Assembly: GCF_002854065.1 (NCBI RefSeq)
Contig: NZ_CP024147.1
Length of the DNA stretch: 64,000 bases
Strand: one strand, 5' to 3'
DNA from: Escherichia coli
Lineage (GTDB): Bacteria; Pseudomonadota; Gammaproteobacteria; Enterobacterales; Enterobacteriaceae
The notes beneath the pieces were generated by a model that had not been told where the DNA came from, searched no databases, and worked only from the letters and a program-made list of their open reading frames with translations. This document shows positions 54,770 to 58,998 of this stretch, one piece after another. The position numbers and the translations under genes were made by a program. Every line of letters begins with the position of its first letter. Within the stretch, counting starts at the first letter, position 1.

Positions 54770-55615
54770 ATGTCCACGACATGGTTTGTAGGAGCCGACT
54801 GGCTCGCCGAACATATTGATGACCCGGAAATTCAGATTATCGATGCCCGCATGGCGTCGCCTGGACAGGAAGATCGTAACGTTGCTCAGGAGTATCTGAA
54901 TGGACATATTCCCGGCGCAGTGTTTTTTGATATCGAAGCGCTTTCTGATCACACTTCCCTGCTTCCGCACATGCTGCCGCGCCCGGAAACGTTCGCCGTG
55001 GCGATGCGTGAATTAGGCGTTAACCAGGATAAGCACCTGATTGTCTATGACGAAGGTAATCTTTTCTCAGCCCCACGAGCATGGTGGATGCTGCGCACCT
55101 TTGGTGTAGAGAAAGTGTCGATTCTGGGGGGTGGACTTGCAGGCTGGCAGCGCGATGATCTGTTGTTAGAAGAAGGTGCAGTAGAGCTGCCGGAAGGAGA
55201 GTTTAACGCCGCGTTTAATCCTGAAGCAGTGGTGAAAGTAACCGATGTGTTATTGGCAAGCCATGAAAATACGGCGCAAATTATTGATGCCCGCCCGGCT
55301 GCACGTTTTAACGCAGAAGTTGATGAACCTCGCCCAGGTTTACGTCGCGGACATATTCCCGGTGCATTGAACGTTCCGTGGACGGAACTGGTGCGCGAAG
55401 GCGAACTAAAAACGACCGATGAACTGGATGCGATATTTTTTGGTCGCGGCGTCAGCTATGACAAACCGATTATCGTCAGCTGCGGCTCTGGTGTAACAGC
55501 AGCCGTGGTTTTGTTGGCACTCGCGACGCTGGATGTGCCAAACGTGAAACTGTACGACGGCGCATGGAGTGAATGGGGCGCGCGGGCAGATTTACCGGTT
55601 GAGCCATTGAAATAA
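54770..55615 (+). CDS. sseA: 3-mercaptopyruvate sulfurtransferase SseA (tandem rhodanese domains)
   Basis: 281 aa from MSTTWFVGADWLAEH...; active-site CGSGVTA. Confidence 0.9.
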   Translation: MSTTWFVGADWLAEHIDDPEIQIIDARMASPGQEDRNVAQEYLNGHIPGAVFFDIEALSDHTSLLPHMLPRPETFAVAMRELGVNQDKHLIVYDEGNLFSAPRAWWMLRTFGVEKVSILGGGLAGWQRDDLLLEEGAVELPEGEFNAAFNPEAVVKVTDVLLASHENTAQIIDARPAARFNAEVDEPRPGLRRGHIPGALNVPWTELVREGELKTTDELDAIFFGRGVSYDKPIIVSCGSGVTAAVVLLALATLDVPNVKLYDGAWSEWGARADLPVEPLK

Positions 55616-55631
55616 GCTTTTTACAGGCAAT

Positions 55632-55660
55632 AAAAAACCGCCGAATTTGGCGGTTTTTTA
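55632..55660. terminator. Bidirectional Rho-independent terminator (sseA on + strand; candidate antisense sRNA on - strand)
   Basis: AAAAAA-CCGCC-gaattt-GGCGG-TTTTTT, with runs on both sides. Confidence 0.75.
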
Positions 55661-55731
55661 TTGCTGGTCTGGTTCGCGGCCTTTCCAGCAGGTTGACTTG
55701 TGTTGCCGGAGCAACGCAGGCACCCCACAGT
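55635..55731 (-). ncRNA. Candidate divergent antisense sRNA, copy 1 (RyfB/TimR-like)
   Basis: TTGACA -35 on the - strand (55761-55766) with a weak -10; predicted 5' end falls on a 16 nt core (55717-55732) whose complement matches the ryfA-like 5' region (55879-55894); bounded by the bidirectional terminator. Confidence 0.35.
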
Positions 55732-55812
55732 GTTGAAATACTCTCTTTTATGCCTGGCTGTGTCAAGATAATAAACAGAGTAATTATTCAAACATGAGAG
55801 TATTATTCTTAA

Positions 55813-56116
55813 TGGCCCTTTTCGCCGTCTCGCAAACGGGCGCTGGCTTTAGGAAAGGATGTTCCATGACCGTAAATACAGGCACCCCACAGTGCTTGCT
55901 ATCGCGGCAATATCGCCAGTGGTGCTGTCGTGATGCGGTCTTCGCATGGACCGCACAATGAAGATACGGTGCTTCTGTATCGTACTTATTGTTTCTGGTG
56001 CGCTGTTAACCGAGGTAAATAATAACCTGAGTCTCTCCGGCAACAATTTACTGGTGGTTAACAACCTTCAGAACAGCAGGTAAGCCCGAATGCCGCCCTT
56101 TGGGGCGGCATATTTA
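55813..56116 (+). ncRNA. ryfA: ryfA-like transcript, copy 1 (putative type I toxin mRNA)
   Basis: TATTAT -10-like box at 55801-55806; strong hairpin terminator GCCGCCC-ttt-GGGGCGGC plus T run at 56092-56116; span about 304 nt. Confidence 0.5.
55958..56083 (+). CDS. Small hydrophobic protein (41 aa, MKIRCFCIVLIVSGALLTEVNNN...), candidate type I toxin (TimP-like), copy 1
   Basis: ATG overlaps by ATGA the stop of an upstream 31-codon ORF (55866..55961) that has an ideal SD (AGGAAAGG, 7 nt spacing); N-terminal 17-residue hydrophobic segment; stop 8 nt before the terminator hairpin. Confidence 0.45.
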   Translation: MKIRCFCIVLIVSGALLTEVNNNLSLSGNNLLVVNNLQNSR

Positions 56117-56314
56117 GATTATCCGATTCTGTTTAAAGTCACGCAAAAAACCACCCCAGCGACGTTCATAGAATGGCGCAATATGTTCGATATTAAAATG
56201 ACCTGGCTTATTAGTCCGAATTCAGACAAATATAAACAAATCCCGCTCAATATTAAAAATACTAACCGGTAAAAGATATTACTTAAACATGTAAATTCAC
56301 TTTCTTTAAGCAAC

Positions 56315-56345
56315 AAAAAACCGCCAAAATCAGGCGGTTATTTGT
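56315..56345. terminator. Bidirectional hairpin terminator, copy 2 of the repeat unit
   Basis: AAAAAA-CCGCC-aaaatca-GGCGG-TTATTTGTT. Confidence 0.6.
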
Positions 56346-56414
56346 TGCCGGTTTGGTTCGCGGCCTCTCCAGCAGATTGACTTGTGTTGCATGAGCAACG
56401 CAGGTGCTTCACAG
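56318..56414 (-). ncRNA. Candidate divergent antisense sRNA, copy 2 (RyfB/TimR-like)
   Basis: Conserved TTGACA -35 on the - strand (56445-56450), AATATT -10-like box about 18 bp downstream; 5' core 56401-56415 matches 56560-56574 in the copy-2 ryfA-like 5' region. Confidence 0.35.
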
Positions 56415-56494
56415 CAGAGCAATATTCGCCAGCAACTCTCTTTTTGTCAAGCAAAAGAGAGTAATTATTGTTTATTTAGCGTATTATCGACACC

Positions 56495-56798
56495 GGCCCT
56501 TTCCGCCGTCTCGCAAACGGGCGCTGGCTTTAGGAAAGGATGTTCCGTGGCCGTAAATGCAGGTGTTTCACAGCGCTTGCTATCGCGGCAATATCGCCAG
56601 TGGTGCTGTCGTGATGCGGTCTTCGCATGGACCGCACAATGAAGATACGGTGCTTTTGTATCGTACTTATTGTTTCTGGTGCGCTGTTAACCGAGGTAAA
56701 TAATAACCTGAGTCTCTCCGGCAACAATTTACTGGTGGTTAACAACCTTCAGAACAGCAGGTAAGCCCGAATGCCGCCCTTTGGGGCGGCATATTTTA
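56495..56798 (+). ncRNA. ryfA: ryfA-like transcript, copy 2
   Basis: Same architecture as copy 1; terminator hairpin 56773-56790 with a T run overlapping the sseB stop codon. Confidence 0.5.
56639..56764 (+). CDS. Small hydrophobic protein (41 aa), candidate type I toxin, copy 2
   Basis: Identical protein to copy 1 (single synonymous difference TTC to TTT); preceded by a GTG-initiated 31-codon ORF (56547..56642) with the same SD and ATGA overlap. Confidence 0.45.
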   Translation: MKIRCFCIVLIVSGALLTEVNNNLSLSGNNLLVVNNLQNSR

Positions 56799-57572
56799 GA
56801 TTATCCGGTTCTGTTTAAAGTCACGCAAAAAACCACCCCAACGACGTTCATAGAATGGCGCAATATGTTCGGTAATAAAGTGGCTAATTCCTTTTTCCCC
56901 TTTTTTCACCTGACAAATATCGATTGGTTCATCGCCAGGTAATGTATCGGTCGCTACACTTCCCGCCGCCTGAATAATTTCTTCGATATCACCATCGGCT
57001 TCAATGCCAATAAGTAAATTAGGCTGTGCCTCTTCGTTCTCTTTAATTGAACATATAAAAGCACGCTTCACCGGCTTAATAGTTTTAAATAAGGTGGTGA
57101 GTGAATCAATCATTTGTGCTGGCGGCTCTGCGACTTCCGATAATATTAGCGATTCACCGCCTTCCAGTACTTCCTGGCTACTCAGCGGATTCCCTTCTTC
57201 ACCAATCAACAAACTGATTTCACGCGGCATAAATTCTTTACCGGTTGGCAGTTTGGCATTAAGGAAGAGCGTTTCGCCAAGGGTCATCTCAAACAATGTG
57301 CGAACGGGCATTACTACAAATGCCTGTTCGTCTTCAACCGCCTGTTGAAGTGCTTCTAACGAGGTAAAAAAAGGAATGACGCTGGTGCCGTCTTCTTTTT
57401 CCCAATGCTGTAAATCAAGCGCACTATCTTCAACCACAGCCTCGCCCTGCGCCGCCGTACCAGGCACCCAGACGGTGGATCCCAGTAGAGTACGGAAAAA
57501 GGCCGGGCGGTGCGCCGGTTCGGTTGCTGCTTTTTCCAGCAGGTCTTCAAGTTCGTTTTTTGTTTCGGACAT
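56796..57572 (-). CDS. sseB: Protein SseB (enhancer of serine sensitivity)
   Basis: 258 aa from MSETKNELEDL... Confidence 0.9.
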   Translation of the reverse strand: MSETKNELEDLLEKAATEPAHRPAFFRTLLGSTVWVPGTAAQGEAVVEDSALDLQHWEKEDGTSVIPFFTSLEALQQAVEDEQAFVVMPVRTLFEMTLGETLFLNAKLPTGKEFMPREISLLIGEEGNPLSSQEVLEGGESLILSEVAEPPAQMIDSLTTLFKTIKPVKRAFICSIKENEEAQPNLLIGIEADGDIEEIIQAAGSVATDTLPGDEPIDICQVKKGEKGISHFITEHIAPFYERRWGGFLRDFKQNRII

Positions 57573-57608
57573 AAGAACCACAATTCATTCAACGTTCGGG
57601 GCACAAGT

Positions 57609-57707
<99 letters not shown>

Positions 57708-57714
57708 TATTAGT

Positions 57715-58998
57715 TTACGCCGTTAACAGATTAGCAATCGTGCGCACACCAAGTCCCGTAGCACCCGCAGACCACTGTTCAACCGGCGCTTTACGGTAAG
57801 TCGCCGAGCAGTCGATATGCAGCCAGCCTTGCTGATAGTTCTCAACAAAGTGCGACAGGAAGCCCGCTGCCGTGCTCGCGCCTGCCGGATACGCCGCGCT
57901 TCCGGTATTGTTCAGTTCGGCAAAGTTAGACGGCAGCTGGCTGCGGTGGAATTCCGCCAGCGGCAGACGCCAGAATGGTTCGTTCTCTTGTGAGGCACTC
58001 GCCAGCAAACGACCGGCAAGCGCATCGTCAAAACTGAACAGCGCGTGATAATCATTACCCAGCGCAGTTTTCGCCGCCCCGGTGAGGGTCGCCGCATCAA
58101 TGATCATTTCCGGTTTCTGCGCACTGGCATCAATCAGACCATCGGCAAGCACCAGGCGCCCTTCGGCATCAGTGTTCATCACTTCAACTTTTTTACCGTT
58201 GCGATAGGTGATGATATCGCCCAGCTTAAACGCATTGCCGCTGATCAGGTTATCCGCACAGCAGAGGAACAGCTTCACGCGCTTGTTCAGTCCGCGCGTA
58301 ATGGCAAATGCCAGCGCCCCGGTAACCGTTGCCGCGCCGCCCATGTCCGACTTCATCGAGTCCATAAACGCAGTCTGTTTGATGCTGTAGCCGCCGGAGT
58401 CAAAAGTGATACCTTTACCTACCAGGCACGCGTACACTGGCGCTTCTTTATCGCCAGTTGGGTTGTAATCCAGCGCCAGCAATACCGGAGAACGTTCTGA
58501 ACCGCGTCCGACGGTGTGCAGCCCCATATAACCTTGCTCACGCAGATCCTCACCTTTGGTGATCCGATAAGTCACACGATCGCCTGCGACGTTGTTGATC
58601 AGATCAACAGCACGCTGTGCCAGTTGCGATGGCCCCAGCTCTTCCGCCGGTGCGTTGATGGTGTCACGCACCCAGTCGATGATCATCAGGCGGTTATCCA
58701 GTTCCTGCCGCTGGGCATCGTCCAGATCCGGCCACTCCACTTTACGCGTGCCTTTCGGGGCTTTGTAACCTTGCCAGAATGCCCAGCAGCGATCCACATC
58801 CCAGCCTTCACCGCTTAGCTGAACATGCTTGATGCCCAGACCGTCAATCTTGCGCGCCGCACGCTGGATCAGCCCCAGATCGTCTGCCCCGTTCAAATGC
58901 AGAGTAATGCCATCATTATTAATGCTGTAAGTTGCTTTTTCTCCCCAGCGCGCGTCGGCAGGTTGGGTAGAGAGGGTAATTTTCATCGCTTCTGTCAT
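57715..58998 (-). CDS. pepB: Peptidase B (M17 leucyl aminopeptidase family) PepB
   Basis: 427 aa; M17 signature NTDAEGRL. Confidence 0.95.

Follow-up and report, generated by a model that had tools for sequence, protein, structure and literature searches.

Two probable timPR toxin-antitoxin modules in tandem between sseA and sseB of Escherichia coli, matching the RyfA1/RyfA2 array of Shigella dysenteriae

Introduction

Does the region between sseA and sseB of Escherichia coli hold one ryfA gene or two, what do these genes encode, and if there are two, where did the second come from? The question was raised by a 64,000-nt stretch of E. coli contig NZ_CP024147.1 (assembly GCF_002854065.1), called the window below, in which a first-pass annotation had noticed a tandem duplication of a ryfA-like locus and had left open whether it was of the type described in Shigella or an independent one. 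The Shigella sibling pair is a published one: Fris et al. (2017, Genes 8:50; PMC5333039) described RyfA1 and RyfA2 in tandem in Shigella dysenteriae, together with RyfB1 and RyfB2. In Salmonella enterica, ryfA is the mRNA of a toxin, TimP, and its translation is inhibited by a small RNA (sRNA), TimR, the two forming the timPR type I toxin-antitoxin system (Andresen et al. 2020, PMC7667032; Eleftheraki and Holmqvist 2024, PMC11228461; Eleftheraki et al. 2026, PMC13000454). According to these three reports, TimR uses its 5' end to pair with stem-loop 2 (SL2) in the mRNA and destabilises a pseudoknot between SL1 and SL3, which is required for initiation since the Shine-Dalgarno (SD) sequence is otherwise locked in SL4. 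Here we report that the window very probably (probability roughly 0.82) carries two timPR type I toxin-antitoxin modules, both complete and arranged in tandem, which are orthologous to RyfA1/RyfB1-RyfA2/RyfB2 of S. dysenteriae.

Results

Two full-length ryfA genes encode the same TimP protein

The Rfam ryfA model (RF00126, gathering score 80 bits) matched two copies in the window, each over model positions 1-296 of 296, with 315.7 bits (E = 4e-88) for ryfA1 and 313.8 bits (E = 1.4e-87) for ryfA2, which places the homology of the repeat far above chance. Over 55560-56960 the window matched E. coli strain EC1515, isolated from urine in Taiwan, at 100% identity; the RefSeq annotation of EC1515 has timP twice and a partial sseB pseudogene. 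The genes are as follows (ORF, open reading frame; aa, amino acids):

55812..56116, plus strand: ryfA1, the timP1 mRNA, 305 nt; -10 element TATTAT at 55801-55806, terminator hairpin at 56090-56111
56493..56797, plus strand: ryfA2, the timP2 mRNA, 305 nt; -10 element TATTAT at 56482-56487, terminator at 56771-56792
55958..56083, plus strand: timP1 ORF, 41 aa (MKIRCFCIVLIVSGALLTEVNNNLSLSGNNLLVVNNLQNSR); NCBIfam NF040796, EC1515 timP (WP_001491247.1)
56639..56764, plus strand: timP2 ORF, 41 aa, protein identical to TimP1

Both ORFs scored 77.7 bits against NF040796 (toxic_TimP; E = 5.7e-22, residues 1-39 of 41), above the curated cut-off of 45 bits. TimP begins with MKIRCFCIVLIVSGALL, in which basic residues lead into a hydrophobic stretch, a pattern that would fit a signal peptide. 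With 125 of 126 nt identical, the coding sequence was the most conserved part of the unit, and its sole difference (C55975 vs T56656) is synonymous. Over the whole RNA the copies were identical at 292/306 positions (95.4%), and the differences were unevenly placed: 11 of the 12 substitutions fell in nt 1-82, five of the 12 forming the variable region, and from nt 83 onward (SL3, SL4, ORF and terminator) the copies differed by one synonymous base and one inserted T. Nt 83-146, with the parts of the 5' untranslated region (5'UTR) that would sequester the SD sequence and form the pseudoknot, showed no difference at all. The model alignment showed all Rfam-consensus helices formed in both copies, and a candidate 7-bp SL1-SL3 pairing (CGCUGGC / GCCAGUG), recognised by inspection, was identical in the two.

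Each unit has a predicted antitoxin gene matched to its own recognition loop

Upstream of each ryfA copy lies a divergent sRNA gene with an intrinsic terminator and a 5' end complementary to SL2, the arrangement of timPR in both units.

55630..55733, minus strand: TimR1, a RyfB1-like sRNA gene, about 100 nt (ends estimated); TTGACA at 55767-55762 precedes the 5' end
56314..56416, minus strand: TimR2, a RyfB2-like sRNA gene, about 100 nt (ends estimated); -35 element TTGACA at 56450-56445, -10 element AATATT at 56426-56421
55879..55894, plus strand: TimR1 target in SL2 of timP1 (CAGGCACCCCACAGTG); variable region CACCC at 55883-55887
56556-56575, plus strand: TimR2 target in SL2 of timP2; variable region TGTTT at 56564-56568

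The TimR1 terminator folds into a hairpin at 55632-55660 followed by a U-run and doubles as the terminator of sseA, being bidirectional. For TimR2, the sigma-70 promoter matched consensus at 10 of 12 positions and the minus-strand terminator lies at 56339-56319. Segment 55717-55732 of the TimR1 gene has the same plus-strand sequence as the SL2 target of ryfA1, so the TimR1 transcript is complementary to SL2, and segment 56397-56416 of the TimR2 gene is likewise complementary, as RNA, to SL2 of ryfA2. The SL2 stem itself covaried between the copies (A55884-U55893 vs G56565-C56574). Pairing energies, computed on the recognition segments alone, were:

TimR1 with timP1: 16 contiguous Watson-Crick pairs, no G.U, -38.2 kcal/mol
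TimR2 with timP2: 20 bp, 3 G.U, -37.2 kcal/mol
TimR2 with timP1: 7 bp, -16.6 kcal/mol
TimR1 with timP2: 18 bp, 6 G.U, -25.8 kcal/mol

In a separate run with slightly longer segments, the cognate pairs reached -42.2 and -38.8 kcal/mol, compared with a mean of about -19 +/- 4 kcal/mol for shuffled antitoxins. RNAduplex on the full-length RNAs was uninformative: each of the four combinations came out as a 100-nt duplex, at -67 to -75 kcal/mol. TimR1 retains some wobble pairing with timP2 because all five loop differences are transitions.

By analogy with Salmonella, each module would consist of a structured RyfA mRNA of about 305 nt, read rightward and encoding the 41-aa inner-membrane toxin TimP, and a TimR/RyfB sRNA of about 100 nt, read leftward, whose 5' end would pair with SL2 in the mRNA 5'UTR. 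Such pairing would break up the SL1-SL3 pseudoknot on which translation initiation depends, and the toxin would stay silent. The two modules encode one and the same toxin, have the downstream RNA structure in common and differ in their recognition loops, each antitoxin bearing the corresponding changes. Since loop and antitoxin changes match, each TimR is predicted to control mainly its own mRNA; TimR2 would not be expected to recognise timP1, and a weak TimR1-timP2 pairing might form through G.U wobbles. In S. dysenteriae, overproduction of RyfB1 decreases RyfA1 and not RyfA2 (PMC5333039), which agrees with such largely separate control. We infer that all four RNAs are expressed in this strain, that TimP is toxic in it and that the two modules are insulated from each other.

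The duplicated block reaches from the sseA terminator into the end of sseB

A repeat search of the window found three pairs of direct repeats, the starts within each pair lying 681-684 nt apart:

55632-55743 and 56316-56427: 78% identity
55773-56072 and 56454-56753: 91% identity
56113-56200 and 56795-56882: 94% identity

Global alignment gave two units of about 569 nt (55632-56200 and 56316-56882) with 500/571 positions identical (87.6%), and beyond these limits homology ended, the left flanks being 48% and the right flanks 36% identical. The tandem duplication proposed in the first-pass annotation was thus borne out by the direct repeats and the two full-length ryfA matches, and its unit limits (55631-56205 and 56321-56890) lay within 1-8 nt of the aligned ones. 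The near-identity it saw in the 3' halves agrees with the placement of the ryfA substitutions given above. The 5' halves had also been called diverged, and are, but the estimate by eye of 75-80% was slightly generous: identity over 55632-55811 was 71.3%, with 81% in the TimR body and 58% in the divergent promoter region.

54770..55615, plus strand: sseA (3-mercaptopyruvate sulfurtransferase), left flank of the array (RefSeq annotation of EC1515 mapped to the window; ORF list)
56796..57572, minus strand: sseB, right flank of the array (ORF list; EC1515 annotation)
56114..56200, minus strand: sseB' remnant, a copy of the last 29 sseB codons and stop, right end of the duplicated block
56201..56315, no strand: unique spacer between the units, 115 nt, AT-rich (28% GC over 56201-56320)

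The gene order, yfhM(-), sseA(+), a 1180-nt intergenic region, sseB(-) and pepB(-), identifies the neighbourhood of sseA and sseB in E. coli. The second unit takes in the 3' end of sseB (56796-56882), which has 2 nt in common with the 3' end of ryfA2. The copy of this sseB end in the remnant is identical at 82 of 87 nt (94.3%), and the translations, ...HFNIEHIAPFYERRWGGFLRDFKQNRII for sseB' and ...HFITEHIAPFYERRWGGFLRDFKQNRII for sseB, differ by two amino acids. Compared with the 3' end of sseA, with the body of sseB and with all other parts of the window, the spacer showed no similarity above shuffled controls.

The Rfam model IS128 (RF00125) matched 56147-56357(+) with 227 bits, a segment made up of the sseB remnant, the spacer as its core, and the TimR2 terminator in antisense; the "IS128 sRNA" family is essentially the scar of the ryfA-locus duplication. 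Outside the array, a REP-like inverted repeat (57624-57652 / 57658-57686) was seen between sseB and pepB, within window 57607-57720, and that segment scored 40.3 bits against Rfam naRNA4, below the gathering score of 59.5.

The array shares its junction with Shigella dysenteriae

Fris et al. (PMC5333039) distinguished ryfA genes by a 5-nt variable region, TGTTT in ryfA2 and CACCC, CCCCC or CGCGT in ryfA1-like genes. The window has the features of their sibling pair, namely tandem ryfA genes between sseA and sseB, CACCC and TGTTT loops, and divergent RyfB-like genes of about 100 nt. The published S. dysenteriae oligonucleotides mapped onto it in the expected order: the RyfB1 quantitative PCR primer matched exactly at 55709-55726(-), the RyfB1 probe exactly at 55683-55702(-) and the ryfA2 TaqMan probe exactly at 56554-56578, and the ryfA1 cloning primer ended in the unit-2 terminator (56321-56334).

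Among contigs encoding the same TimP we found CP026774.1, the genome of S. dysenteriae 1 ATCC 13313 (PMC7819885), which contains the published ryfA1 probe exactly. It has the order of the window (TimR, ryfA, sseB', spacer, TimR, ryfA), and the 1.4-kb block was colinear with it, 1347 of 1363 aligned positions being identical (98.8%). Locus, order, orientation and junction were therefore the same in both. Three differences were noted. The upstream variable loop is CACCC in the window and CCCCC in S. dysenteriae, both ryfA1-like in the terms of PMC5333039; the loop-antitoxin match is 16/16 for TimR1 of the window vs 16/18 reported for Shigella (PMC5333039); and S. dysenteriae is an enteropathogen, whereas the window comes from an E. 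coli strain that matches a urinary isolate over the 1.4-kb block.

S. dysenteriae and 156 complete E. coli genomes have one and the same junction, made up of ryfA terminator, 29-codon sseB remnant and 115-nt spacer. This makes the duplication a shared one and excludes an independent origin, and it settles the alternative left open by the first-pass annotation in favour of the Shigella type. The array would stem from one old duplication, running from the sseA terminator through the last 29 sseB codons and common to Shigella and many E. coli lineages, most of which would later have lost one module wholly or in part.

The full array is rare in E. coli and its scar is common

When 5,426 complete E. 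coli genomes were searched, 156 (2.9%) had the junction (ryfA terminator, sseB', spacer) as one contiguous match, and these came from water as well as from humans, poultry, pigs and wild animals; frequencies given here reflect database composition and not natural populations. Junctions were counted with queries of about 200 nt (207 and 201 nt) at an E-value limit of 1e-60, which enforces contiguity. Whole-block BLAST coverage cannot tell the architectures apart, as pieces of single-ryfA K-12 were joined over both query copies. A ryfA query gave 175 extra ryfA matches, in agreement with the 156 junction genomes, and about 85 genomes matched the whole 1.4-kb block at 95% identity or more. Two junctions were present in 5 of the 5,426 genomes. 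The spacer was much more widespread (2,157 genomes, 39.8%), and the deletion junction of K-12 was found in 1,688 (31%).

Other arrangements were met among individual strains. A single module and no spacer is found, for example, in O157:H7 (CACCC class) and in ST131 (CGCGT class), and strain M25631H has a CGCGT+TGTTT array. A scan of species-representative genomes for the conserved SL4 pattern gave 6 loci; that of E. whittamii has one CGCGT-class module, the locus sequence ending 215 nt upstream of it. In E. coli PapM-32-1 (NZ_CP049204.1, 700-2540) we observed three units, CACCC-CGCGT-TGTTT, each with its cognate TimR, together with two sseB remnants and two spacers, and RefSeq annotates timP three times there. 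In strain E300010 (NZ_CM128601.1, 1-600), a gene for an IS200/IS605 transposase takes the place of the sseA-proximal terminator region upstream of the array; this strain also has a fourth recognition class, TGTAT, absent from the list of Fris et al. Each of the classes CACCC, TGTTT, CGCGT and TGTAT has a TimR with 16-20 bp of complementarity somewhere in its own locus.

In strain 06-00048 (NZ_CP015229.1, 1526-1811) the TimR gene runs straight into ryfA at the shared 16-nt CAGGCACCCCACAGTG. This remnant looks like the product of a deletion by recombination between the antitoxin recognition sequence and its target, which form a direct repeat on the plus strand. Both promoters and ryfA nt 1 to about 70 are gone, and ISEcB1 lies between sseA and the remnant.

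Ten E. coli alleles were compared by pairwise alignment in Biopython. The 180 nt upstream of ryfA in unit 1 were identical to those of the O157:H7 singleton, and those in unit 2 showed 9 differences from unit 2 of M25631H. In ryfA nt 96-305 (210 nt), nine of the ten alleles differed from each other at 2-8 positions, with up to 14 differences when the GTDB representative was included. The pattern of diverged 5' and near-identical 3' halves is a species-wide property of the locus, with a hypervariable antitoxin, promoters and loop and a conserved toxin part. As the 3' part is conserved across E. coli alleles, the near-identical 3' halves in the window are not a sign of a young copy. The window copies were nonetheless the closest pair in nt 96-305, with 2 differences vs 5 from each to its allelic counterpart, and the M25631H copies differed at 6 positions. 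Conservation explains most of the 3'-half similarity, and recent gene conversion may have added to it.

CACCC ryfA1-like alleles were carried by a urinary isolate and by isolates from poultry, pig, otter, mink, baboon and fresh water. In 2017 ryfA1-like genes had been correlated with enteropathogens only (PMC5333039), a claim with which these carriers do not fit.

K-12 carries a decayed form of the same array

The first-pass annotation had noted that K-12 is usually described with one ryfA, and had reasoned that an identical region in K-12 would make the window simply the standard locus. The two regions are not identical. K-12 does have one ryfA, but its locus equals the array of the window minus 356 nt (window ~55828-56183), the upstream ryfA being within the missing segment. 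What is left in K-12 is the TimR-like gene upstream, the final ~17 nt of the sseB remnant, and the spacer with unit 2; in strain TOP10 the locus at 1557-2373 corresponds to window 55616-56795. K-12 thus has a decayed array, neither a plain single-copy locus nor an ancestral single copy.

Like unit 2 of the window, K-12 ryfA is of the TGTTT class, with 1 difference in nt 1-95. The TimR adjacent to it is of the CGCGT class and gave 11 bp and -27.3 kcal/mol with K-12 SL2, and the TimR on the sseA side is of the matching TGCTT class and gave 20 bp and -35.8 kcal/mol. The same swap was seen in E300010, where the distal TimR gave 17 bp and -34.5 kcal/mol and the adjacent one 6 bp and -16.1 kcal/mol. 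In the literature searched, we found no description of a match between the distal TimR and the ryfA of K-12 or E300010.

Discussion

The first-pass annotation spoke of a ryfA-like locus, and that name holds, but each unit reads as a toxin-antitoxin module (timP mRNA plus TimR) and not just as an sRNA gene. Several points weigh against this interpretation. It is carried over by analogy from experiments in Salmonella. The TimP peptide was undetected in uropathogenic E. coli (UPEC), avian pathogenic E. coli (APEC) and S. dysenteriae (PMC8205139, PMC13188913, PMC5333039), ryfA phenotypes in UPEC remain after destruction of the ORF (PMC8205139), and deletion of timR in APEC had little effect (PMC13188913). 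In the window, the TimR1 promoter fell below the threshold of the consensus scan, the ends of both TimR transcripts are estimates, and the duplex energies leave out intramolecular structure. The TimR1-timP2 pairing also lies above background, so insulation may be one-directional.

The best-surviving alternative is that RyfA1 and RyfA2 act mainly in trans as regulatory sRNAs, with the variable loop setting their targets, RyfB/TimR serving as anti-sRNAs and the TimP ORF irrelevant in E. coli. RyfA1 overproduction in S. dysenteriae removes ompC mRNA and blocks cell-to-cell spread, the peptide being undetected (PMC5333039), and the UPEC CFT073 mutant is still complemented by ryfA alleles whose ORF has been destroyed (PMC8205139). 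Yet no part of the unit is better conserved than the timP ORF, which also scores above the cut-off of the curated TimP model, the 5'UTR parts that would sequester the SD sequence and form the pseudoknot do not differ between the copies, and the loop matches an antitoxin in every allele class, as expected of a toxin-antitoxin recognition site. We therefore consider this account unlikely as an alternative, although a regulatory or dual-function RNA is a serious, non-exclusive rival: it is compatible with the toxin-antitoxin reading, and dual function is possible.

It is improbable that one of the modules has lost its function and is decaying towards the state seen in K-12. About 2000 of the 2157 spacer-bearing genomes are without the upstream ryfA, and the TimR1 promoter is the weaker one by consensus; against this, the two copies have near-equal scores over the full covariance model, their ORFs are identical and intact, their terminators are intact too, and each copy has its cognate antitoxin. 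Moreover, the upstream 180 nt of unit 1 equal those of the O157:H7 module, the first 95 nt of ryfA differing once, and this module has no sibling and must be the working copy of O157:H7. A recent, independent duplication in this strain or lineage, merely resembling that of Shigella, is barely credible: the near-identical 3' halves could suggest a young copy and nothing else was found in its favour, but that similarity reflects a conservation seen in every E. coli allele compared, identity between the 5' halves is only 71%, both units resemble alleles of other strains and are thus old, the identical junction recurs in strain ATCC 13313 of S. dysenteriae as well as in 156 complete E. coli genomes of varied host origin, and K-12 has a truncated form of it. 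An assembly or collapse artefact can be dismissed, as 71 differing columns out of 571 make a mis-joined single copy impossible and the structure occurs in 156 independent complete genomes, with a three-unit form as well.

Two complete timPR modules thus being the preferred reading, they can be set beside other type I systems. Ibs/Sib, Ldr/Rdl and ZorO/OrzO of E. coli are multicopy type I toxin-antitoxin families with copy-specific antitoxins, their paralogues being tandem or dispersed, and small differences in the pairing region are thought to keep antitoxin specificity. The toxins and RNAs of these families are unrelated to those of timPR, and in Ibs/Sib and Ldr/Rdl the antitoxin genes overlap or abut their targets, whereas TimR is separately encoded and pairs in trans over 16-20 nt. 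Salmonella timPR and the window share an RF00126 RNA, an NF040796 protein, a divergent antitoxin whose 5' end is complementary to SL2, and probably a 5'UTR of four stem-loops. Salmonella is described with one module and an adjacent extra gene, STM2534, whereas the window has two modules with different loops; the Salmonella system is known biochemically, the window alleles here from their sequence.

The tandem arrangement was already known through the pair of Fris et al. (2017), its mechanism through the work of the Holmqvist laboratory in 2020-2026, and its annotation through the two timP genes in RefSeq. With arrangement, mechanism and annotation all public, the finding as stated matters little. 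What is added is the predicted insulation of the modules by a 5-nt loop change with matching antitoxin changes, the rarity of the full array in E. coli (2.9% of complete genomes) beside the frequency of its scar (40%), the recognition of K-12 as a decayed array, and the occurrence of CACCC ryfA1-like alleles outside enteropathogens, at odds with the correlation of 2017. Tentatively, and with rather less than even confidence, the sseA-sseB region of E. coli and Shigella may be viewed as a timPR cassette array of one to three units, with one toxin and at least four mutually discriminating loop classes, in which decay and recombination leave orphan antitoxins and the toxin mRNA of K-12-type genomes (31%) is matched by the distal TimR, a picture met in no paper of the library searched. 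If this is true, deleting "the" timR in K-12-type strains could remove the wrong gene.

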